A stretch of 64,000 bases of DNA, from positions 5,668-69,667 of the forward strand of contig JBPCPW010000013.1 of NCBI GenBank assembly GCA_050998755.1, read 5' to 3'. This DNA comes from Candidatus Dormibacteria bacterium. Lineage in GTDB: Bacteria > Chloroflexota > Dormibacteria > DASZGP01. A program made the translations under genes and the position numbers. Numbering within the stretch: position 1 is the stretch's first letter; each line of letters starts with the position of its first letter. Positions 5,875-26,931 of the stretch are shown one piece after another. Below the pieces are notes generated by a model that ran no database searches, was not told the DNA's origin, and saw only the letters and a program-made list of their open reading frames with translations.

Positions 5875-8800
5875 GTGCCTGACCCACGTTCCTCCTCCGA
5901 ACGCCCGGCGCTGCCGCCAGGGCTTTACGAGGCGCTGCTAACTGTCGACCTGCAGCAGCGAATAGCCGAGCTGCGGGATGCGTTCCGCTCGGGCGAACTC
6001 GACCCCATCGAGGCGCCGGCGACACTCTCTGCGTATCTTGCATCCGTGGTCGCTCGAGAGTTCAAGCGGCCGGGCTTCGCGGGAGATCCAGAGCGCCAGG
6101 TCGAGGTAATCAATCGGATCATCGCCGGGCTGGTTGCGAGCGGTGGGCAGGACGGCGATGTTGAAGACTCGATCTTGTCTCCTCCACGGCTTCTCCTCGA
6201 GGTCCACCGGCAAGATTCAGACGGAGCACTGTCGGCTCGGCGACCGAGCACTCCTCTTCGCGACGACGCGTTGTTCGTTCGTGCGCCCGGCGAGCCGGCG
6301 TTTGCGTCGGAACTGAATCGGGAGCTCGCATCAGCAGATCGCGTCGACCTCATCTGCGCGTTCGTCGTCTGGAACGGGATCCGCGTCCTGTGGGATGAGA
6401 TCTCCCGCCTCCACGAGCGCGGTGGGACGTTCCGCCTGATCACTACGACTTTCACCGGTATCACCGAGGCCCGAGCCCTCGAAGAACTGATCAGGCGCGG
6501 GGCGGACGTCAAAGTCAGCTACGACACCCGCAGCACAAGGCTGCACGCAAAGGCTTGGCTCTTCCACCGTAACTCGGAATTCGGCACCGCCTACGTCGGT
6601 TCGTCGAACCTCACGCACACCGCCATTCACGATGGACTCGAATGGAATGTCCGGCTGTCCCAGGCGAAGTCCGGCGCGCTCCTTGAGCGCTTTGCTGCGA
6701 CGTTCGAAACGTATTGGCAGGACGAGCGGTTTGAGGACTACAACGCCGACCGCTTCGCTGCCGCCGTGCAGCGCATCGGCAACGACGACGCAATTACCAC
6801 GGCCATGTTCGACATACACCCACTTCCCTTCCAGGAGGCGATCCTCGAGAGACTGCAGGTCGAGCGTGACCGCCACGATCGATGGCGCAACTTGGTGGTG
6901 GCTGCCACAGGGACCGGAAAGACCGTCATGGCAGCCCTGGACTACGCGCGGCAGCCGATGGTTGAAGGTCGTCGGCCGACCTTGCTGTTTGTGGCCCACC
7001 GAGACGAGATCCTCAATCAGAGCCTGGCGACCTTTAGAACCGTGTTGAAGGACGGAGCTTTCGGCGAGAAGTGGGCCGGTGGATCCAGACCGGCTGCCGC
7101 CCGACACGTATTCGCCTCCATCCAATCCCTGCACGCCGCCGACGTCGCTGCCCTGGACCCACGTCGGTACGACGTCGTCATTGTCGATGAGTTCCATCAC
7201 GCCGCCGCGCCTACTTACCGCCGCCTGCTCGATCGCGTGCAACCTCATCTCTTGTTGGGTTTGACGGCGACACCTGAGCGGACCGATGGCTTGAACATCA
7301 CACAGTGGTTCGAAGGGCGAATCGCTGTTGAGCTCCGGCTCTGGGACGCCATCCAGCAGGACCTGCTGTGCCCGTTTCAGTACTTCGGAATAGCCGACAA
7401 CGTTGACCTATCCGCCGTGCGGTGGTCGCCGCGCGGCTACGACAAAGCCGAACTCTCCAACCTATACACCGGAAACAACGCACGACTGGCGAAGGTTCTC
7501 GAATCCGTTCGGCAGATCGTTCGAGATCCGCTGGAAATGCGCGCGCTGTGCTTCTGCGTCAGCGTGGCCCATGCGGAGTTCATGGCAGGTGCTTTCAACA
7601 CCGCGGGCATTCCGTCGGCGGTGGTGACGGGAGAGACTCCGCGCGAGAAGAGGCAGGCGGCAATACGAGACTTGGCCGAAGGACGGATCAACGCTGTCTT
7701 CTCCGTAGACGTCTTCAACGAAGGGCTGGATATCCCGTCCGTCGATACCGTGCTGTTCCTCCGGCCCACGGAGAGTGCGACCGTGTTTATCCAGCAGCTT
7801 GGCCGAGGACTGCGGAAGCTGCCGGGCAAGAGCGGTCTCACCGTTCTCGATTTCATCGGTCAGCAGAATCGCCAGTTCCGATTCGAACCACGGTTCCTGG
7901 CACTGACCGGCTCCGGAAGGCGCTTTATCGCGCGCGACGTAGAGGATGACTTTCCTTTCCTGCCATCCGGGTGCTCGATCCGACTGGACCGGGTTTCTCG
8001 AGAGATCGTTCTTGGGAATCTCAGGGCAGCGTTCCGCGGGCGACGGGCGGGATTGGTCGCCGAGCTGAGCGCGCTCGGCGATATCCCACTGGCCGAGTTC
8101 CTGAGGCAGGCCGACCGGGAGATCGCTGACGTCTACCTGGCTGGAGGCTGGACAGCTATTCGGCGGGACGCTGGTTTCGCACAGCCGCCGGGCCCGGATG
8201 AGGAGAAGCTGGCCAAGTCGATCTCGCGGATGCGGCACGTCGACGACGAGGCGCGAAGCGCGGCTTACGCTCGTTGGGTCTCCGAGCCGCAGCCGCCGGC
8301 CGTCGAGTCGATGAGCCTGCGTGACCAGCGCCTGCTGGCGATGCTGCACACAGACCTTTGGGGGCGCTCCCGCGAGCTCGGCTCCGTGCAGCAGTCTATG
8401 GCGCGGTTCTGGCCGCATCCCGACCTACGACGCGAGCTGGTTGAGCTGCTCGATGTGTTGGACGACCAGGCGCAGCACGTCCTGCTCGACTCAAGTCTCC
8501 CGGACGAGGTGCCACTTTATGTCCACGAACGCTATACACGCGACGAGGTGCTCGCGGCTCTTGGGGACGCAACCGCCGAGTCACCGTCGAGTAGCCGCGA
8601 GGGCGTCCATTTCAACCAGGCCTACGGCGTGGATGTCTTCTTCGTAACACTGAAGAAGTCGGAGGAGCGATTCTCGCCCTCGACGATGTACAGGGACTAC
8701 GCCCTCTCGCCGACCCTGTTCCACTGGGAATCGCAGTCACGGACGACAGCCAACTCGCCTACCGGGCTCAGGTATCAGGACCATGTCGCCGGAGGCACCA

Positions 8801-9014: not shown

Positions 9015-9983
9015 CTACAGAGTCACCTGCCCAGTGCCTGCGGCGAGGCAGGCGCCCAGCAGTGCCGCGGCAATCACCAGTACGGATAGGCACCCGGACT
9101 TCGCCGACGCGGAGACAATGGGGGTCGCCTCACCCTCGGGATCGGATGTTGCCTGGATCAGCTTCTGACCAGGTACAAGAACGACGACGTCAGACTGCTC
9201 TCCGCGCGCCTTCCGCATCCACTTCCAGAGCAATTCGCCATCGACTACGAATACCTGCGGATCAGCCTTGGCCATGTCCCGACGGGCTGTCTGGCCCACC
9301 TGCCCTGACGTGACCAGATACGCCGTCGCCTTCTCGCGGTTCGCTCGGTCGGACAGCGCCCTCAACATGTCGATCTTGACGTAGGCATCGGCGGCGAAAT
9401 GCTTGACCTGGAGGATGCACGGTGAGCCCTTATGGCGCATTCGGATGTCCACCCCGCCATCGCCGTCCCGTCCGGCTGCGACGACTTCGACATCCTCGAA
9501 CCCGAGCCGCCGGAACGTTTCGGCGACAAGACCCTCGAACTGCCACCAGGTCATCGGGTACATGCGGTCCCAGCCGGTGGTCATGTCGAAAAGTGCGGCG
9601 GCCGACGGGCCGGCCCAGGTGGTTGGACGCTGCCCGGGCGGGAGCGCAGCAATTGCCTTCAGTTCGAGAGCTGACTGTACCTCCCGCCTGAGAGCCGCCG
9701 CCCGTGCGAGAGCCTCCTCCATCTGCTCGCTGGCTTGACGCCAGGCGGGCTCGGTCGGAGCGCTTGGGCCGAGTTCCCGGGTCCGTTGAGAAACGAGAGT
9801 AGCCGTACTGAGAAGGTCGGACAGCAGGAGAAGCTGCTCGCGCTCGAGGGTCGACAGGGTTTGTGCAAATCGGCGTTCTACAGTCACGCCTGATGAGTGA
9901 ACCAAATTGGCTCCGCTACCGCCACCTGGCCCAGGTGTCAGTGAGGTGACAGTCCACGCCGGAGACGAGAGGACCCAGGCCAC
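9015..9983 (-). CDS. Mrr-cat-like restriction endonuclease domain protein with a C-terminal transmembrane anchor.
   Basis: FEGLVAETFRRLGFEDVEVVAAGRDGDGGVDIRMRHKGSPCILQVKHF matches the Mrr N-terminal PD-(D/E)XK pattern (G-DGGxD ... QxK). The C-terminal hydrophobic segment is CLSVLVIAAALLGACLAAG. Confidence 0.6.
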   Translation of the reverse strand: MAWVLSSPAWTVTSLTPGPGGGSGANLVHSSGVTVERRFAQTLSTLEREQLLLLSDLLSTATLVSQRTRELGPSAPTEPAWRQASEQMEEALARAAALRREVQSALELKAIAALPPGQRPTTWAGPSAAALFDMTTGWDRMYPMTWWQFEGLVAETFRRLGFEDVEVVAAGRDGDGGVDIRMRHKGSPCILQVKHFAADAYVKIDMLRALSDRANREKATAYLVTSGQVGQTARRDMAKADPQVFVVDGELLWKWMRKARGEQSDVVVLVPGQKLIQATSDPEGEATPIVSASAKSGCLSVLVIAAALLGACLAAGTGQVTL

Positions 9984-18004: not shown

Positions 18005-18684
18005 GGACGGAAGCTCCAGGCCAGGTAGAAGGCTTCGGCAAGCGCGGGCGGACGGAACAGCGCCCAGAGGCCGAAGTCGTCTGGCTCCTCGTAGACCTCG
18101 GCGAACACCGTCTCGGCGGCCCCCCGCAGGGCGGCGGTGGTGGTGGGCAGCGACTCGGTGATGTAGTTCTTGCCATCGCCGGCCGGCCCGAAGCCCATGT
18201 CGAATAGCACTTGCTCGTGGGCCACGTCGAGTGGCCGGAGGACGCATACCGGGCAGTGGTGCCGGCGTGAGTTGACAGCAGTCAGGAGCGCGCCGTCACC
18301 GTCAGGAGTCAACAGAAAGAACATCGACTGGTCGGGGGTGGTGCTCTGGAGGATCAGGTCGTCGTTCGCGGCCCCGGCGCGGAGCAGGACCGAGATTGCT
18401 CCGTCGATGAAGTCCCGGCGGACCGCGGGATCCATCGGGCGGTGATGTTTGTGGTGGGTGTCGACAACCTGGGGGACGGCGGTCCAGCTGTCGGCGGAAA
18501 ACCAGCGGTGGGTGAAGCATTGAAATAGCAGGCCGCCGTCGGGACGCACCCCCATAAGAGGAAAGGCGTGGTTGCAGGCGGGGCATGCCAGGGCCAGCTT
18601 TTCCGGCCAGGTCGGGGCTTTATGTTCAGCTCTTTTTCTCACGAACTCAGTGTCTCGTGAGGCCGCGACACATGGCTGTCGCAC
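18001..18684 (-). CDS. Hypothetical Zn-ribbon protein, paralog 1 of 3 (CPACN...CPVCVLRPL...GKNY..LP). The true start is probably downstream of 18684.
   Basis: Shares CxxC pairs and a C-terminal L..GF...G.KNY..(D)LP block with the next two genes. The palindrome at 18665-18682 overlaps the annotated start. Confidence 0.45.
   Translation of the reverse strand: MRQPCVAASRDTEFVRKRAEHKAPTWPEKLALACPACNHAFPLMGVRPDGGLLFQCFTHRWFSADSWTAVPQVVDTHHKHHRPMDPAVRRDFIDGAISVLLRAGAANDDLILQSTTPDQSMFFLLTPDGDGALLTAVNSRRHHCPVCVLRPLDVAHEQVLFDMGFGPAGDGKNYITESLPTTTAALRGAAETVFAEVYEEPDDFGLWALFRPPALAEAFYLAWSFRP
18665..18682. promoter_or_regulatory. Inverted repeat GCGACA-catggc-TGTCGC between paralog genes 2 and 1.
   Basis: 6-bp perfect arms with a 6-nt spacer; same motif family. 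Confidence 0.55.
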
Positions 18685-18709: not shown

Positions 18710-19312
18710 TCAATTCAGGCTCGCAAGCTGCGCCAGGATATCCCTCAGGACCTCGGTGCGCTTGAAGTAAACGCCGACCTCGAAGTCCCCCGCTTCTCCG
18801 TACGCGCGCAGCATGGCGTCGTCTGCCAGCATGGCCAGCTCGCGGCGATTTCGAGGCAGGTCCAGGGCCGTCGGGTTGGGTCCGGCCGACAGGCGCTCAA
18901 ACCCGAGCCGGACCAGCGCATCCCTGGCCTCCGCACCCAGGGGCCGGTTGCCGCAGACCGGGCAGTCCCACTCCCGCGAGCCGACCTCGAGGATGAACCC
19001 ACCCTTGACGAACCTGAAGAGCAGCTGGTTGCACGGCAGCGTCGAGCTCTGGATCGCCATGAAGTCATCAGCATCGGGGTCGATCAGGAAGCGCTCGAGT
19101 GACCGTTCGATGAGCCATAGCCGCTCCTCGCAATGCATGAACTCCGCGCCGAGGTGGTCGCGATCGGCGCGGCGCGACGTGATGAAGACGCCGTGGGTCG
19201 AGCACGTTGCGATCAGGACCCCGCGACCCCTCACGCCCTGGCTGCAGCCCTCGCCGCAGTCGGGACAGCTGATCTGTGAATCGGAGTGCAGCTCGTCGGA
19301 GGTGTACCTCAT
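18710..19312 (-). CDS. Hypothetical Zn-ribbon protein, paralog 2 of 3 (CPDCGEGC...CPVCGNRPLGAEARDALVRLGFERL).
   Basis: Similar to paralogs 1 and 3. ATGA overlap with the upstream paralog 3. Confidence 0.45.
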   Translation of the reverse strand: MRYTSDELHSDSQISCPDCGEGCSQGVRGRGVLIATCSTHGVFITSRRADRDHLGAEFMHCEERLWLIERSLERFLIDPDADDFMAIQSSTLPCNQLLFRFVKGGFILEVGSREWDCPVCGNRPLGAEARDALVRLGFERLSAGPNPTALDLPRNRRELAMLADDAMLRAYGEAGDFEVGVYFKRTEVLRDILAQLASLN

Positions 19313-19992
19313 GAGAAGAGCGGCCCGTCCTCGGCCTTGAGGATCCAGTCCTGGGCCCAGTCGGGGAGATCCTCGAACCTGCCGACCGCTTCGACGGCGC
19401 GGCGCAGCCGCTGTCGATCCTCGCAGTCCAGCTGGATCTCCATGAAGTTGCTGCGTAGCGCACGCAACACCCGCGCGGCGAGGCCAGGCGACGTCTCCAG
19501 CGGCGGCTCATCGCGATGGCGATAACCGCAGGGGCATGACACCTGGGGCTTCGGGGAACCGATGGGTGTGAGCTGACCCCGCCTCTCTGCCCAGCGCGCC
19601 ACGTGCCAGTCGGTGGTGCGAATGTCTGGGCGGACCGGCGCCGGTGTCTCGAACGCGGTCTCGAACAACCGCGCCGTCAGGGTCGCGAGATACTTCGCGC
19701 TGGCGGGGAGGTCGTCCATGCAGTAGTTCTTAGCCCGCCCGCCGTGGGTGAACCCGAGCCGTATGAGGGCGAACTCTGCGGCATCGGAGAGCGGCTCATG
19801 GTCGTTGACCGAGGCCCCCCACTGGCGCGAGCTGACCTCGCCGTAGACGACGCCGTTGTGCAACTTGAACTGTACGAACTCGTTGGTCTTTACCGGGTTC
19901 TCGAAGACGATGAAGTCCTCCTCCATGGCATTGGCCAGGAAGACCGCGAAAGGATGCTCGAACTGGGCTGCGCTCTGGGTGGAATTTGTCAT
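19309..19992 (-). CDS. Hypothetical protein, paralog 3 of 3 (...LIRLGFTHGGRAKNYCMDDLP...CPCGYRH). Start probably the ATG at 19992; the ORF is open up to 20046.
   Basis: Shares the L(I/V)RLGF...KNY..DLP block with paralogs 1 and 2. The palindrome at 20011-20036 would sit 20-45 bp upstream of the 19992 start. Confidence 0.45.
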   Translation of the reverse strand: MTNSTQSAAQFEHPFAVFLANAMEEDFIVFENPVKTNEFVQFKLHNGVVYGEVSSRQWGASVNDHEPLSDAAEFALIRLGFTHGGRAKNYCMDDLPASAKYLATLTARLFETAFETPAPVRPDIRTTDWHVARWAERRGQLTPIGSPKPQVSCPCGYRHRDEPPLETSPGLAARVLRALRSNFMEIQLDCEDRQRLRRAVEAVGRFEDLPDWAQDWILKAEDGPLFS

Positions 19993-20010
19993 AACCGCAG
20001 CCTGGCGGGG

Positions 20011-20036
20011 CACCGCGACAACAGCCTGTCGCGGTG
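20011..20036. promoter_or_regulatory. Inverted repeat CACCGCGACA-acagcc-TGTCGCGGTG upstream of the paralog-3 operon.
   Basis: 10-bp perfect arms with a 6-nt spacer. Confidence 0.6.
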
Positions 20037-20061
20037 AGTGGAACATCCGGTTTGGTCCCTG

Positions 20062-20484
20062 TCAGGAAGCGGGGCCTGGGTGGAGGCGAAAGCGTTTGCC
20101 GCCCGGCCCACGCAACGATTCGAAGTGACGCCTGTCCAGGGTGAGGACGTCGAGGACGGCGTAGCGCTCGGCAAGCACGACTATCGACGCGTCTGCCAGG
20201 CCAATGCCTGCACCCGCACGGCGCGCGACGACAGCCCGTGCAGCCGCGACGTCGGTGGCAGAGAACGTTTCAAGGCGATATGCCCCCCGCGCAACCTCAT
20301 CGAGAAGCGTGAGCTCCGCGCTCGTGCCCACCCTTGTCGCCAACAGATAGTCCATTTCGGCCAGCACAAACGGTGACATCAGCCTCGGGCCGCCCAGGGC
20401 CATGAGCGCGGCCGCCGCAGGCTCGTGCTGCGCCTGGCTGCTGTCGATCGCGGCGAGGAGCCCGCTGGTGTCGACGAGGATCAA
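20062..20484 (-). CDS. vapC: VapC PIN-domain toxin.
   Basis: MILVDTSGLLAAID...LTLDRRHF is typical PIN. 4-bp overlap with the upstream RHH antitoxin. Confidence 0.78.
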   Translation of the reverse strand: MILVDTSGLLAAIDSSQAQHEPAAAALMALGGPRLMSPFVLAEMDYLLATRVGTSAELTLLDEVARGAYRLETFSATDVAAARAVVARRAGAGIGLADASIVVLAERYAVLDVLTLDRRHFESLRGPGGKRFRLHPGPAS

Positions 20485-20708
20485 GTCTCCCCGAAACCGG
20501 CCAGGAGTTCCTCAGCATTTTCAGCCAGGCCAGGTTGACCACTGGCGAACAGCGGAAGCCTTGGGTGCGGCTCACGTAACTCAAGCAACCGCTCCACGCC
20601 CTCGCGGACCAGGTCGGCCTCGGTGCGGCCGTCCTGCGCGGCCGCACGTTCGAGTTTCGTCTTCAGCTGCTCAGGTAGGTAGATCGTTGTTCGCTTCACG
20701 CCATACAT
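20481..20708 (-). CDS. vapB: VapB ribbon-helix-helix (CopG-like) antitoxin.
   Basis: RTTIYLPEQLKTKLERAAAQDGRTEADLVREGVERLL RHH fold. Confidence 0.72.
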   Translation of the reverse strand: MYGVKRTTIYLPEQLKTKLERAAAQDGRTEADLVREGVERLLELREPHPRLPLFASGQPGLAENAEELLAGFGET

Positions 20709-20783
20709 TCTGCCATACGTCCTGAGTCACCCGACTGATATTGTCAGACCGCTCGGGACGTTCAGGCGACATTTCACTCCGGC

Positions 20784-20812
20784 GGCGTGCGACAACCTAG
20801 CTGTCGCACGCC
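20784..20812. promoter_or_regulatory. Inverted repeat GGCGTGCGACA-acctagc-TGTCGCACGCC 60 bp upstream of the WYL regulator gene, with a third GCGACA half-site at 20816. Candidate autoregulatory operator.
   Basis: 11-bp perfect arms with a 7-nt spacer. GGAGG RBS-like sequence before the 20872 ATG. Confidence 0.6.
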
Positions 20813-20871
20813 TACGCGACAGTGAGGGCGTGATCGAGAAGTGCAACAGAAGGGAGGGTAGGTAGCTCACA

Positions 20872-21864
20872 ATGCCGATGGTGTTGAAGCTCAAGAAGGA
20901 GTTCGAGAAGCAGGACCGCGCCGCGCGGTTGATGCTGGTCATGCAGATCTTTGCGGGCGCACCCCATGGCGTGACCGCGAGGGAGATCGGCGACCGCACC
21001 GGCCGCGATAAGCGCACCTCGCTTCGCGATATCCACGCGCTGGAGGACATCGGTGTCCCGGTGCTCCAGGAGGCCAACGACACGTGGCGCCTGATGCCCG
21101 GCTACGTCCTGCCGACGATCGCGTTCACCCAGCAGGAGACGATGGCCATCCTGCTCGCCACCCGGCTCGCCGTGCAGCACCTCGACTACTACAACGAGTT
21201 CCTGGCGATGGCCCTGAACAAACTGGCGAGCTCCCTCCCCAAGGGCGCCGTCCGCGTGCACGTGGGCGAGAGCGTGAGCCAGCTCGCCGCCAAGCCGGCG
21301 GACGCCGAGCGCCAGAAAGTTTTCAGCGTGATCACCACCGGTCTTTTGGACCGCAAGCAGATCCGCTTCACCTACGTCGACTCGAAGGGCGTTGAGACGG
21401 AGCGGCGGATCCATCCCTACTTCATGGAGCCGATCTCGCTCATGTCCCGCGGCACCTACCTGTTCGGCAAGGACATCGACAAACGCGAGCTCCGCGTCTT
21501 CAAGCTGGACCGCATCAAGAAAGCCGAGGTCCTGGCCACCGACGCCTACATCCCCGATGACGCCACCCTGCAGAAGCAGGTGGCGGATTCCTGGGGGGTC
21601 TGGAACCAGGGCCGGGTGCAGACGGTTGAGCTTCTCTTTAATAGGGATGTCGCCCGCCGGCTCACCGAGACAATGTGGCATCCCTCCCAGGTGCTGACCA
21701 GGCAGAAGGGCGGCGCAATCCTTCTGACGCTCAAGGTCCGCGGACTGGTCGAGATCACCCCCTGGATCCTGAGCTGGGGCGCCGATGTCGAGGTGGTCGG
21801 CCCCGCGGAGTTGCGCAAGGCCGTGGCTGCTACGGCGGCCCGGATGGCGGGAACCTACAGCTAG
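20872..21864 (+). CDS. HTH-WYL-WCX transcriptional regulator (BrxR/CapW/PafBC-like).
   Basis: N-terminal HTH (GVTAREIGDRTGRDKRTSLRDIHALEDIG). WYL region YFMEPISLMSRGTYLFGKDIDKRELRVFKLDRIKKAEVL. C-terminal extension. 330 aa. Confidence 0.8.
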   Translation: MPMVLKLKKEFEKQDRAARLMLVMQIFAGAPHGVTAREIGDRTGRDKRTSLRDIHALEDIGVPVLQEANDTWRLMPGYVLPTIAFTQQETMAILLATRLAVQHLDYYNEFLAMALNKLASSLPKGAVRVHVGESVSQLAAKPADAERQKVFSVITTGLLDRKQIRFTYVDSKGVETERRIHPYFMEPISLMSRGTYLFGKDIDKRELRVFKLDRIKKAEVLATDAYIPDDATLQKQVADSWGVWNQGRVQTVELLFNRDVARRLTETMWHPSQVLTRQKGGAILLTLKVRGLVEITPWILSWGADVEVVGPAELRKAVAATAARMAGTYS

Positions 21865-21897
21865 ACCAGCGAGCCGCGGCGGGTCAGACTGAAGGCA

Positions 21898-22206
21898 ATG
21901 TCGACTGCCGGCCGGCTCATCCACGACGCCGTCACCGCCTGGCCGGGAGTCGAGGCGGTCCCCCATCGTTTCGGCGGCACGGAGTATCGCTACGGTCGCA
22001 AGGAGATGGGCCACGTGCACGGCGACCGGCTGGCCGACCTGCCCCTGCCGCGCGCCCTGCACGACCAGGTCGTGGCCGATGGACGCGCGCAGTTGCACCA
22101 CATCCTGCCCGACACCGGCTGGGTGAGCTGCTGGATGTCCGACCCGGACGACGCCGCCTCGGTGATCGAACTATTTCGAATCCAGTACGAGCGCTACCTG
22201 GGCTGA
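21898..22206 (+). CDS. Small conserved hypothetical protein (102 aa). Possibly a member of the short luciferase-like/DUF family; not verified.
   Basis: An ORF directly downstream of the WYL gene on the same strand. Confidence 0.35.
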   Translation: MSTAGRLIHDAVTAWPGVEAVPHRFGGTEYRYGRKEMGHVHGDRLADLPLPRALHDQVVADGRAQLHHILPDTGWVSCWMSDPDDAASVIELFRIQYERYLG

Positions 22207-22217
22207 CCGGCGCGACA

Positions 22218-22239
22218 CTGCGACATGAACCTGTCGCAG
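22218..22239. promoter_or_regulatory. Inverted repeat CTGCGACA-tgaacc-TGTCGCAG between the 102-aa and 341-aa genes, with an extra GCGACA immediately 5'.
   Basis: 8-bp perfect arms with a 6-nt spacer. Confidence 0.55.
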
Positions 22240-22260
22240 GCATGACCCACCGTCGGTGTC

Positions 22261-23286
22261 ATGAATGAGAAGAGCAGCAACCCACAGGATCCCAAGAGCC
22301 CGACCATCGCACTCAAGGAGCGCATCCGCCTGGACGGCCCCGCCGGTCTCACCGTCGGTCGCGGCCGCAGCATCGGCGCCCTCACCCTGGTGCCCGTCTT
22401 CCACGAGGGGCCGGCCGCCGACTACATCCCCTACGCGTCCATCCAGGGTAGCGGCCTGCTGGAAATCAGCGAGGTCACCGGCGGCGGCCAGGTCAACACC
22501 CTGGTCGCGGAGAACCGCGCGGACCAGGCGGTCCTACTGCTGGAGGGCGAAATGCTCGAAGGCATGCAGCAGACGCGCGTGCTCAACGTCACCGTCCTGG
22601 TGCCCGCGAAGACCACGCTGAACATCCCGGTGTCCTGCGTGGAGGCGGGCCGCTGGCACCACGACGGCGTGGCCGCCTCCAAGCACGAGTTCCATATGTC
22701 ACCGCGGGCGCGCTCGCGCAAGACGATTACCGTCAACGAGCAGGCCCGCGGCGTTGGCTCGTACGCCTCCAACCAGGGCGAGGTGTGGGCCAGCGTGGAT
22801 GATGAGCTCGCCGCGCACCAGGTAGCGGCGCCGACGCGGGCGCAGTCGGAGATCGGCAGGGCCCGCGGCGCGGAGGTCAGGCGAGACCTGGACCAACTCG
22901 AGCCGCGGCCGGGGCAGGCCGGCGTCGTCGCGGTGGTCGGTGGCACGCCGCTCTGCTTCGACCTGTTCGACCGTCCGTCCACGCTCGAGGTGGTCTGGAA
23001 GGGGCTCGTCGGCAGCTACGCGCTGGATGCGATGACCGTGCCCAAGCGAGCCGCTGCCGAACGAGACACAACGGAGGCCCGCCGTTGGCTGAGCGGCATG
23101 ACCGAAGCGATGGCGACCGAGCATCCCGGCGTGGGCATTGGCACCAACGTGCTCTTGAGCTCCGCGGGCGTCGGGGCCACGTCGCTGGTCATCGACGACG
23201 CGGTAGTCCACCTGGCAGCTTTCATGGCGACCGAGACCATCGGTTTCGCACGCCCCAGCCGCCGCGGCGGGACGCAACTTATCTAG
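22261..23286 (+). CDS. Conserved hypothetical protein (341 aa). Resembles an uncharacterised family I recall from conflict-system contexts (ARPP-1/DUF-like); not verified.
   Basis: Block GLLEISEVTGGGQVNTLVAENRADQAVLLLEGEMLEGMQQTRVLNVTVLVPAKTTL. Flanked by two copies of the palindrome motif. Confidence 0.45.
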   Translation: MNEKSSNPQDPKSPTIALKERIRLDGPAGLTVGRGRSIGALTLVPVFHEGPAADYIPYASIQGSGLLEISEVTGGGQVNTLVAENRADQAVLLLEGEMLEGMQQTRVLNVTVLVPAKTTLNIPVSCVEAGRWHHDGVAASKHEFHMSPRARSRKTITVNEQARGVGSYASNQGEVWASVDDELAAHQVAAPTRAQSEIGRARGAEVRRDLDQLEPRPGQAGVVAVVGGTPLCFDLFDRPSTLEVVWKGLVGSYALDAMTVPKRAAAERDTTEARRWLSGMTEAMATEHPGVGIGTNVLLSSAGVGATSLVIDDAVVHLAAFMATETIGFARPSRRGGTQLI

Positions 23287-23301
23287 CCGTCGGAGTGCGG
23301 G

Positions 23302-23325
23302 CCCGCGACAACCATCTGTCGCGGG
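23302..23325. terminator. GC-rich hairpin CCCGCGACA-accatc-TGTCGCGGG, 16 nt after the 341-aa gene stop. A terminator-like stem that is also a member of the GCGACA-N6-TGTCGC motif family.
   Basis: 9-bp perfect stem with a 6-nt loop. No U-tract, which is common in high-GC Gram-positives. Confidence 0.45.
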
Positions 23326-23567
23326 TCCACCCGATGCTGACGTTGTAATGAACCCCACCGTCATCACCAACACCAGCCGGCCGCGCACCCGCATCTACCA
23401 GCGACGCTGGAACGTCGAGGCTGCCTGGTCGGCCCATGAGGATCACCAGTGCCTGGCGGACACCATAGAACTGGCCAACGTGACCGGGAGAAGCGCGAGC
23501 TTGAGGAGCAGCACGAGCGCTCCAACAGGGCGAAGTTCCTGGCGAACCCGCGGTTCCTGAAGTAGCC

Positions 23568-23816
23568 CTAACCCTCCCCCCGGATCTGCGTCATCAGGTC
23601 GTCAGTGGGCACCCTGCGCTGGAGAATGCCGTAGACGGCCTCGACGGGGTCGCGCTGAGCCAGCTTCACCGCCACCAGGCGGCCCTCCTCTTCTTCAAAA
23701 TAGAGGATCTCACCGGGACGAATGCCGAGGCGGTCCCGGAGCCGTTTGGGAATGGTCACCTGCCCCTTCCCAGACACCGTGGATTTCATACTTTGAGAGT
23801 AGTGATTCCCGCTCAT
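23568..23816 (-). CDS. SpoVT/AbrB (MazE-like) domain protein; putative antitoxin.
   Basis: VSGKGQVTIPKRLRDRLGIRPGEILYFEEEEGRLVAV swapped-hairpin motif. Its start directly abuts the upstream GNAT stop (TAAATG). Confidence 0.55.
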   Translation of the reverse strand: MSGNHYSQSMKSTVSGKGQVTIPKRLRDRLGIRPGEILYFEEEEGRLVAVKLAQRDPVEAVYGILQRRVPTDDLMTQIRGEG

Positions 23817-24233
23817 TTAGAACACCAAGACGTAGGACCAGTACTTCCAAGATCCCCCGTCGTACTCAGCGTGTTGGACGAATCCCATCCGCTCGTACAG
23901 CGCCCGGGCCACCGGCATCACCTCCGTCGTGTGGAGGCCCAGGCCTGCCGCACCGTCAGCCATGGCACGGTCGATGCACGCCTGGGTCAGGGCGCGTCCG
24001 ATCCCCTTCCCACGATGGCCGGGGGCCACGGCCAGCGCTCGAAAGTAGGCCCAGTCCGGGGCCAGCCAGGCGGAGTCGCGCTTGCCTGCCGCGTAATAAG
24101 CCAGCGCGCCGGCCAGTTCCCCTCCGACCTCCGCCACCAGGATCACGGCGGACTCGCGGTAAGCGCCAACCGTGATCTCCGCGACCTTGCCGTACTCAGC
24201 CGGTAGGGCTTCCCTGATCATGAATTCACCCAA
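23817..24233 (-). CDS. GNAT family N-acetyltransferase (138 aa); possible GNAT-type toxin partner.
   Basis: Acetyl-CoA-binding motif A HRGKGIGRAL. Confidence 0.65.
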   Translation of the reverse strand: MGEFMIREALPAEYGKVAEITVGAYRESAVILVAEVGGELAGALAYYAAGKRDSAWLAPDWAYFRALAVAPGHRGKGIGRALTQACIDRAMADGAAGLGLHTTEVMPVARALYERMGFVQHAEYDGGSWKYWSYVLVF

Positions 24234-26250: not shown

Positions 26251-26553
26251 ATGAGCCAGCCATGTTCAGAGTTCGTGCCATATTATTCATATATGACACG
26301 TAACGTATATCGGGCACACGTGGGACCTGGCGGCCGGGTGGTACTGCCCGCCGGCCTGCGACGGACCATGAACCTTCAGACCGGGTCGGAGCTAATCCTG
26401 GCGGAGACCCGCGAGGGCGAGTGGCGAATGTTCACCCGCGCTGATGCGCTGGCCGAAGCGCGGGCGCTGGTACGACAGCACGTCGGCTCCGGCGACAGCC
26501 TGGTCGACGAGTTGCTCGCTGAACGCCGCTCAGAGGCGCGCCGGAAGAAGTAG
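26251..26553 (+). CDS. AbrB/SpoVT-type antitoxin (VapB-like). Start probably the internal Met at 26293.
   Basis: HVGPGGRVVLPAGLRRTMNLQTGSELIL. Preceded by an AT-rich promoter-like island. Confidence 0.6.
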   Translation: MSQPCSEFVPYYSYMTRNVYRAHVGPGGRVVLPAGLRRTMNLQTGSELILAETREGEWRMFTRADALAEARALVRQHVGSGDSLVDELLAERRSEARRKK

Positions 26554-26931
26554 ATGGTGGTCCTCGACGCCTCCGCCGTGCTTGCGCTGCTGAACCAGGA
26601 GGCGGGAGCCGAGATGGTCGAGCCGTTGCTGGACGAGGCCGTCATTAGCGCAGTGAATCTGAGCGAGGTGGCCGGCAAACTTATCGACCGCGGGCTGACT
26701 CAGGCGGACGTACGTGCTGCACTCGACTCGTTGCAGCTCGACGTCCGCCCGTTTGATTCAGACCATGCCTACAGAGCCGCCGGGCTCCGGGCCGTTGTAC
26801 CGAAGGACTTCGCTCTCGGCGACCGGGCCTGCCTCGCCCTCGCGAGCGCCCTCCAAGTCGAAGCCTTCACCGCGGATCGAGAATGGCGCCGCCTGCAGCT
26901 GCCAGACATATTGGTCACCGTAATCCGATAG
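26554..26931 (+). CDS. vapC: VapC PIN-domain toxin.
   Basis: MVVLDASAVLALLNQE...FTADREWRRL. Start abuts the antitoxin stop. Confidence 0.72.
   Translation: MVVLDASAVLALLNQEAGAEMVEPLLDEAVISAVNLSEVAGKLIDRGLTQADVRAALDSLQLDVRPFDSDHAYRAAGLRAVVPKDFALGDRACLALASALQVEAFTADREWRRLQLPDILVTVIR

Follow-up and report, generated by a model that had tools for sequence, protein, structure and literature searches.

Which genes are controlled by the WYL-domain regulator encoded within positions 20784-23325 of a 64-kb stretch of DNA from Candidatus Dormibacteria bacterium, an uncultured organism from soil, and are they activated or repressed? The stretch (contig JBPCPW010000013.1, positions 5,668 to 69,667, assembly GCA_050998755.1), referred to as the window at its full length, has a GC content of about 66 %. 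A first-pass annotation described a WYL regulator followed on the same strand by genes for proteins of 102 and 341 amino acids (aa), bracketed by copies of a palindrome which were taken as operators, and left open whether the regulator is a repressor of the BrxR/CapW kind or an activator of the PafBC kind. The anatomy of the promoters and the closest relatives of the protein favour the DriD/PafBC type: with moderate confidence, the regulator is considered a homodimeric activator, predicted to be triggered by single-stranded DNA (ssDNA), and the palindromes appear to be promoter elements located at about -40 to -23 in place of a -35 hexamer, 10 nt ahead of a weak -10 hexamer.

The three genes of the locus and the three palindrome copies reported earlier were all recovered, and are listed below with the remnant that follows them. 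The palindromes are very probably the binding sites of the 330-aa regulator, as judged by analogy, and are called WYL boxes.

20789-20807, plus strand: WYL box of the regulator promoter, GCGACA-N7-TGTCGC, followed by 10 nt, the hexamer GACAGT (20818-20823), 6 nt and GTG 20830
20830-20865, plus strand: upstream open reading frame of 11 codons; its first codon, GTG 20830, is the predicted transcription start and its stop lies 6 nt ahead of ATG 20872
20872-21864, plus strand: HTH-WYL-WCX regulator, 330 aa (list of open reading frames, ORFs, and Pfam), with the Shine-Dalgarno sequence GGGAGGG upstream of ATG 20872
21898-22206, plus strand: DUF5519 / PF17648 protein, 102 aa (ORF list and Pfam)
22220-22237, plus strand: WYL box of the ARPP promoter, N6 spacer, followed by 10 nt, CACCGT (22248-22253), 7 nt and ATG 22261
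22261-23286, plus strand: ARPP-1 protein (PF20208, DUF6569), 341 aa (ORF list and Pfam)
23305-23322, plus strand: WYL box of the decayed downstream operon, N6 spacer, followed by 10 nt, GATGCT (23333-23338), 9 nt and ATG 23348
23315-23562, plus strand: decayed operon remnant with fragments of a three-gene operon for proteins of 146, 110 and 66 aa

The set of palindromes is larger than was first seen. A search for GCGACA-N(4-9)-TGTCGC retrieved six exact matches in the window, where 100 dinucleotide shuffles led one to expect 0.04; no shuffle attained six. The matches are the three copies of the locus and three more at 12339, 18665 and 20015. When a position weight matrix of the box was built from the sites of relatives only and then run on the window, with 20 shuffles as control, the five window sites with a 6-nt spacer scored 22.8-37.7 against a shuffle maximum of 11.7, and the next-best matches were the 18665 box read the other way round (14.5) and a site at 16750 (12.4). 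Additional half-sites are present beside the regulator box at 20766 and 20816.

The boxes do not bracket a group of genes as proposed; instead, each copy is directed at a start codon downstream of it, in a register that is fixed and promoter-like, and the copy located after the last gene heads the decayed downstream operon. Read towards the gene, all six window boxes are followed after 10 nt by a hexamer of the form nAnnnT (CAGCCT, GACACT, CAGGCT, GACAGT, CACCGT and GATGCT) and by an ATG or GTG at +22 to +25; read in the opposite orientation, such a hexamer occurs at one of the six. This register is kept by 20 of 22 boxes (with up to one mismatch) in seven orthologous loci and by both boxes of L095 (the loci fetched for comparison are designated by such numbers). 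The arrangement box-N10-nAnnnT-N6/7-ATG precedes the ARPP gene in 8/8 orthologues, and the same layout was found in four distant WYL-ARPP loci (L026, L062, L031 and L064; ARPP identity 36-42 %), with an exact box in L026.

No sigma-70-type -35/-10 promoter and no intrinsic terminator were detected in the region, and Rfam and tRNA scans of the window gave no matches. A Shine-Dalgarno sequence is missing at five of the six box-associated start codons, ATG 22261 of the ARPP gene among them, and the mRNAs driven by the boxes would be leaderless, starting at or beside the start codon. Conservation of the 11-codon reading frame of the regulator promoter is not obvious in L001. The -10-like hexamers of the window boxes and of about 25 boxes in L001-L010 and L095 read (G/C)A-N3-T, once with A in first position, which may reflect a sigma A preference of the phylum or a class of activator-dependent promoters. 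Promoters without a -35 element are known for two characterized WYL regulators. PafBC recognizes the motif tGTCgg(N10)tA(N3)T, whose 5' part lies at -28 to -23 in the absence of a -35, a mode of action termed 'sigma adaptation' (PMC8635444). DriD, with the consensus ATACGAC(N7)GTCGTAT, binds its own promoter (PMC10853764) and, according to cryo-electron microscopy published in 2026, its sites overlap the -35 position, with the same spacing to the -10 element, in promoters lacking a -35 (PMC13004042).

The regulator itself matches the Pfam models WCX (6.6e-19), WYL (3.3e-13) and HTH_11 (1.2e-4, just under its cutoff) and thus shows the HTH-WYL-WCX architecture in a single 330-aa chain. Its best sequence matches in the PDB (phmmer) are DriD (8tp8 and 9pfq, about 4e-15 to 5e-15), followed by PafBC (6sj9 and 7p5x, 1e-8 and 1e-6), and no CapW or BrxR chain occurs among its PDB matches at E<0.01. 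In the HMMER alignment R48 and R52 of the regulator align with the guanine-reading residues R37 and R41 of DriD. The residues of DriD in contact with ssDNA (Y168, S172, R178, R189, Y192, R204, R207 and Y240) have as counterparts Y168, K172, R178, R193, Y196, R208, K211 and W244, that is, five of the eight are identical, two are conservative replacements and one is a Ser-to-Lys change. An ssDNA-triggered activator is favoured because this residue conservation and the promoter logic fit DriD/PafBC. PADLOC returned only generic WYL and Cas3c N-terminal-domain matches for the regulator and none for the seven neighbouring proteins scanned, with no recognized defence system adjacent; NCBIfam gave no match for the regulator, the 102-aa or the 341-aa protein.

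In the mechanism proposed, single-stranded nucleic acid arising from DNA damage or phage attack would bind to the WYL domain, and the ligand-bound dimer would engage the GCGACA-N6/7-TGTCGC boxes and help the housekeeping RNA polymerase to start at promoters that are otherwise unusable. The genes switched on would include the regulator's own operon, by means of the weaker N7 box and with the YjbR-fold gene as a passenger, as well as the ARPP gene, three TY-Chap3-type genes, an HDAC-like gene, an ORF for a small membrane protein and the decayed downstream operon. A DriD/PafBC-type activator and its box promoters would in this way constitute the regulatory core of a stress/conflict island centred on an ADP-ribosylglycohydrolase (ARG), a reading that is held to be somewhat probable as a whole.

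Several points weigh against it. The register was first noticed post hoc in the window, and held afterwards in independent loci. The -10-like hexamers never start with T, as opposed to the canonical TAnnnT. Binding of the boxes by the regulator is deduced from co-occurrence and analogy, and the leaderless nature of the transcripts from spacing and the missing Shine-Dalgarno sequences. No box occurs upstream of the operon for the R-P phosphatase and ARG in the window, and the ARG core may be under separate regulation in this genome. Finally, the boxes overlap the core promoter, and a palindrome placed over the -35/spacer region could equally be an operator. The strongest rival builds on this last point and proposes a CapW/BrxR-like repressor, with the palindromes as operators which occlude working promoters and with ssDNA or a ligand derived from ADP-ribose (ADPr) de-repressing the island. 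Precedents count in its favour: CapW is an ssDNA-sensing defence repressor (PMC11662680), BrxR is also a repressor, and negative regulators were assumed in the in silico study that defined ARG-centric systems (Iyer, Burroughs, Anantharaman & Aravind 2022, Viruses 14:1977; PMC9503650). Besides, the island is located among toxin-antitoxin genes and its relatives lie near McrBC.

Such a repressor is nevertheless considered unlikely, while still a serious contender. The activator is preferred because the distance between the box and the -10 is invariant over about 30 promoters in many genomes, as befits an element contacted together with RNA polymerase and not a roadblock; a steric operator needs no such phasing. 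The promoters that a repressor would have to occlude have no -35 and only weak -10 hexamers, the nearest characterized relatives of the protein are the activators DriD and PafBC, with no match to CapW or BrxR at E<0.01, and the proximal half-site agrees in sequence as well as position with the -26 element of PafBC.

The proposal of the first-pass annotation, a dedicated anti-phage operon composed of the regulator, a 102-aa adaptor and a 341-aa effector and delimited by operators, is very improbable. The three genes are tightly spaced on the same strand and WYL regulators often accompany defence systems (PMC9122601), but the unit of three genes is not conserved, and none of 88 other ARPP loci (8 orthologous and 80 distant) has the 102-aa gene. 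The gap between regulator and ARPP gene is empty in L004, L007, L009 and L010 and is occupied by other cargo in L001 (an RHH gene), L008 (RibD_C) and L005 (three unrelated genes). Homologues of the 102-aa protein, 75-85 % identical, are encoded in unrelated contexts, beside genes of the MerR/TetR, TfoX_N and YjbR kinds and away from any WYL or ARPP gene, so the co-occurrence with WYL regulators on which the proposal depended was not found for this gene. In addition, the ARPP gene has its own predicted promoter, boxes are present at five other transcription units, and PADLOC and PHROGs matched neither the 102-aa and 341-aa proteins nor the TY-Chap and HDAC ones.

The 102-aa protein is highly conserved, matches PF17648 ('Luciferase domain', DUF5519 / 'luciferase family protein') with 1.6e-19 and has a YjbR-like fold. 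Its gene is probably co-transcribed with the regulator, and is a passenger on that transcript and not a component of the system. In L011/L012 (5001-5701) a homologue lies directly upstream of a PF04237 YjbR gene, with which it shares one base, near TfoX_N; the two products may be paralogous partners, the DUF5519 model having a YjbR fold.

A role of the palindromes at the RNA level or in genome structure, as terminator hairpins or REP-like repeats, is hardly credible: they are short GC-rich inverted repeats and two of them lie just past stop codons, but no copy is followed by a T-tract, no terminator-like site was detected, no Rfam family matched, the half-sites are invariant and the spacer sequence is free, which is the opposite of a constrained hairpin, and the copies keep a fixed distance to a -10-like hexamer and a start codon and stand ahead of the first genes of divergent units.

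With the box promoters tentatively assigned to a DriD/PafBC-type activator, the question turns to its main target. The 341-aa protein had been singled out as the best candidate for an effector, and this held: it is the conserved, uncharacterized partner of the regulator, adjacent to it in 8/8 orthologous loci. It matches ARPP-1 (PF20208) with 1.3e-76 (258 bits against a cutoff of 27) over 297/297 profile positions. Residues Y55, E71, E97, Q104, R106, N109, C126, E128, R151, W176 and H317 are invariant in 60 homologues, and most invariant residues fall in the N-terminal beta-rich domain. The AlphaFold2 model (pLDDT, predicted local distance difference test, of 92) has no structural relative in the PDB, and a profile search against PDB sequences gave only spurious coiled-coil matches. 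A full-text literature search retrieved no paper under DUF6569, PF20208 or DUF5519. The family comprises 8,986 clusters at 50 % identity (E <= 1e-10).

Fusions of ARPP occur elsewhere in the family, with VWA plus microbial-type PARG, with VWA by itself or with an R-P phosphatase (P0307, P0337, P0299 and P0305), and those with PARG and R-P phosphatase provide an independent tie of ARPP to ADP-ribose processing. The name of the family, its conserved Cys and Gln, the ARPP-WYL gene pair and an association with HIRAN were reported by Iyer et al. (2022; PMC9503650), where it is proposed to act on ribose moieties, possibly via covalent linkage. ARPP is probably a Cys/Gln/His-dependent enzyme or covalent trap for ADP-ribose-derived adducts, working alongside the R-P phosphatase and ARG. 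Of the 80 distant ARPP loci, 10 contain a WYL homologue and 51 have a usable upstream gene call; in these 51 the gene ahead of ARPP frequently codes for a one-component sensor regulator, namely MerR (6), sigma-54 activators (4, one of them RtcR-like), WYL (4) and XRE (3), and a divergent XRE gene stands beside ARPP in L013 and L014. ARPP thus looks like an inducible effector combined with varying sensors, WYL being the sensor in this clade.

Several further genes of the island lie ahead of the locus, as follows.

15664-16194, plus strand: Tc-R-P (DSP-type) phosphatase, with PTP-SAK / Tc-R-P matches
About 16176-17099, plus strand: ARG, directly after the phosphatase (ADP_ribosyl_GH 1.5e-65 on ORF 16044-17099)
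12394-13821, plus strand: DUF429+HD_4 phosphatase, upstream in the island
13839-15516, minus strand: NadR-like gene (nicotinamide mononucleotide, NMN, adenylyltransferase plus AAA_28 kinase) and PnuC gene (nicotinamide-riboside/NMN transporter), beside the R-P/ARG operon

ARG is coupled to an R-P phosphatase, a one-component WYL regulator lies 3.8 kb from it, and TY-Chap and ARPP genes accompany them. The association of regulator and ARG is also seen in L004, L005 and L008, where the combination of R-P phosphatase, ARG, HD, TY-Chap3, WYL and ARPP genes recurs; in two of them, L005 and L008, a box drives the phosphatase/ARG operon. The eight orthologous WYL-ARPP loci also carry R-P phosphatase, ARG, TY-Chap3 and HD_4 genes. 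By gene content, the island matches the ARG-centric ADP-ribose-processing system that Iyer et al. (2022; PMC9503650) predicted. That work describes these systems in silico only and presents their counter-ADP-ribosylation function as a prediction, which the fusions of ARPP to PARG and R-P phosphatase support indirectly. The earlier description of the locus as an uncharacterized system is thus correct in the experimental sense, but the association of ARPP, WYL, ARG and TY-Chap3 had already been recognized computationally in that study.

The NadR-like and PnuC genes add a theme of NAD salvage to the island which was not seen in related loci. A 239-aa ORF at 15538-16257 on the minus strand was rejected as an antisense artefact which mirrors the phosphatase gene at 15664-16194 (tblastn). 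A VapBC-type pair (RHH plus PIN, 20062-20708, minus strand) is inserted so that it separates the TY-Chap3 operon from the regulator, a second antitoxin/PIN pair follows further downstream (26251-26931, plus strand), and many PIN toxin-antitoxin pairs as well as McrBC occur near the island in relatives.

The remaining boxes of the window and the genes associated with them are as follows.

20015-20032, minus strand: WYL box, promoter of the TY-Chap3 pair, followed by 10 nt, CAGGCT, 6 nt and ATG 19992
19309-19992 and 18710-19312, minus strand: TY-Chap3-type chaperone genes overlapping by 4 nt (TY-Chap3 1.8e-9 on ORF 19309-20046)
18665-18682, minus strand: WYL box, followed by 10 nt, GACACT, 6 nt and GTG 18642
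18001-18642, minus strand: Zn-ribbon / TY-Chap-like gene, with a GTGA overlap that couples it translationally to the HDAC-like gene
17096-18004, minus strand: HDAC/AcuC-like deacetylase gene, coupled to the boxed Zn-ribbon/TY-Chap-like gene
12339-12356, minus strand: WYL box, followed by 10 nt, CAGCCT, 6 nt and ATG 12316 of a small hydrophobic (membrane-like) ORF

The first TY-Chap3 match has two paralogues in the window. The HDAC-like gene is a genuine member of the regulon; its homologue in L095 (63 % identity, 5958-6960) carries its own exact box in register. That homologue is found beside SIR2_2, TY-Chap3 and VWA genes, and the VWA gene is also boxed in register. L009 likewise has a WYL box with a VWA-like ORF behind it (9937 to 9977).

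The box at 12339 lies 38 nt upstream of the DUF429+HD_4 gene (12394-13821) and is divergent from it, and its small ORF corresponds in position to the gene for a membrane protein of 61 aa that is divergent from HD_4 in L007. The DUF429+HD_4 gene has an AATAAT hexamer 6 nt before its GTG start, which places the 12339 box at about -55 to -38; in L007 the orthologous gene comes with an N7 box that is bidirectional and keeps the usual register. Two long ORFs of 420 and 239 aa, with ambiguous G+C content at third codon positions (GC3), lie downstream of the 12339 box (10017-12023, minus strand) and lack both a Pfam match and a homologue among the fetched loci.

Regarding the decayed unit after the ARPP gene, the operon for proteins of 146, 110 and 66 aa is intact and driven by a box in L009 (8923-9897), L008 (8003-8777) and L004 (12488-13485), and its proteins have no Pfam or PHROGs match. 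A 70-aa ORF in the remnant (23348-23560) was discarded as a real gene, being a chimera of operon fragments with non-coding-like codon statistics (GC1 < GC2). MazE-like and GNAT genes (23568-24233, minus strand) abut the remnant.

The kind of system is already known as a computational prediction (Iyer et al. 2022; PMC9503650). What appears to be new at this locus, as read from its sequence, is the cis-regulatory logic: a box for an activator takes the place of the -35, the targets are predicted to be leaderless, and the regulon is dispersed and reaches HDAC-like and VWA genes. The implied input would also be new, ssDNA as against the ADPr-sensing repressor assumed in that paper. The ARPP family, large with its roughly 9,000 clusters (50 % identity), has no solved structure and no structural relative, and the locus offers a compact handle on it and on ARG-centric systems through an 18-bp box, a predicted ssDNA inducer and a small regulon. 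If the interpretation is right, the DriD/PafBC promoter design, an activator box for the -35, extends to the candidate phylum Dormibacterota and to a regulon outside DNA repair. A more far-reaching proposal is speculative and rather doubtful: that ARPP is a Cys-dependent enzyme or covalent trap of new fold acting on ADP-ribose adducts, perhaps on DNA, and that the island, with its DriD-like activator, leaderless mRNAs and HDAC-like and VWA members, is a 'de-ADP-ribosylation response' regulon not recognized before, which is induced by DNA damage or phage and lies outside Proteobacteria and Actinobacteria. The adducts are placed perhaps on DNA because the regulator is predicted to sense ssDNA and an association of ARPP with HIRAN has been published.

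Comparison with known systems places the locus between several of them. BrxR/CapW share with it the HTH-WYL-WCX architecture, the setting in conflict-type gene islands and palindromic sites; they differ in that no sequence match was obtained at E<0.01, no PADLOC defence system is adjacent here and the promoter geometry resembles that of an activator. SiwR of Mycobacterium smegmatis is a homodimeric, ssDNA-binding WYL activator whose palindrome lies in the -26 region, flanked by the -35 and the -10 of adjacent stress genes, but it controls a single adjacent DinB-like operon, whereas six promoters with unrelated targets are predicted here. Identity of the regulator with SiwR was rejected, since targets and context differ.

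The ARG-centric systems in the available text of Iyer et al. (2022) agree with the island in having ARG next to an R-P phosphatase, an HD phosphatase, TY-Chap3, ARPP and a one-component WYL regulator. In that text the regulator is negative and senses ADPr-type ligands, and no cis-elements are given; here there is a defined box and a dispersed regulon, and promoters and residues point to a DriD-like ssDNA-sensing activator. The HDAC-like gene, boxed in two genomes, is not among the components listed in the same text. Further differences are the boxed VWA gene of L095, the VWA-like ORF after a box in L009 and the ARG operon of this genome, which stands without a box.

With the PafBC/RecA-NDp promoters of Actinobacteria the likeness is most evident in the proximal half of the box, TGTCGC(N10)nA(N3)T, which is equal in sequence, spacing and position, again with no -35. 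R48 and R52 fall at the positions of PafB R46 and R50 (by alignment offset), which read the GTC triplet, and the ligand predicted here, ssDNA, is the same. PafBC is, however, a heterodimer with a non-palindromic site and does not bind DNA without RNA polymerase, whereas here there is one gene only and the palindrome is complete, which implies a homodimer whose two HTH domains both sit on DNA.

The closest parallel is DriD of Caulobacter crescentus, the best solved match: it is of equal length, its domains come in the same order, and it has in common with the regulator the arginines that read DNA and most ssDNA contacts. Both share the CGACA/TGTCG half-site, a palindrome over the -35 at a fixed distance to the -10 and a site at the regulator's own promoter. 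On the other hand, sequence similarity is low (E 4e-15 over full length) and the phylum is different, the spacer here is one bp longer (CGAC-N8-GTCG vs N7) and not AT-rich, and the transcripts appear leaderless. The targets also diverge: those of DriD are recA, didA and bapE, whereas the predicted regulon of the Dormibacteria regulator is made up of ADPr-processing, chaperone and ARPP genes.

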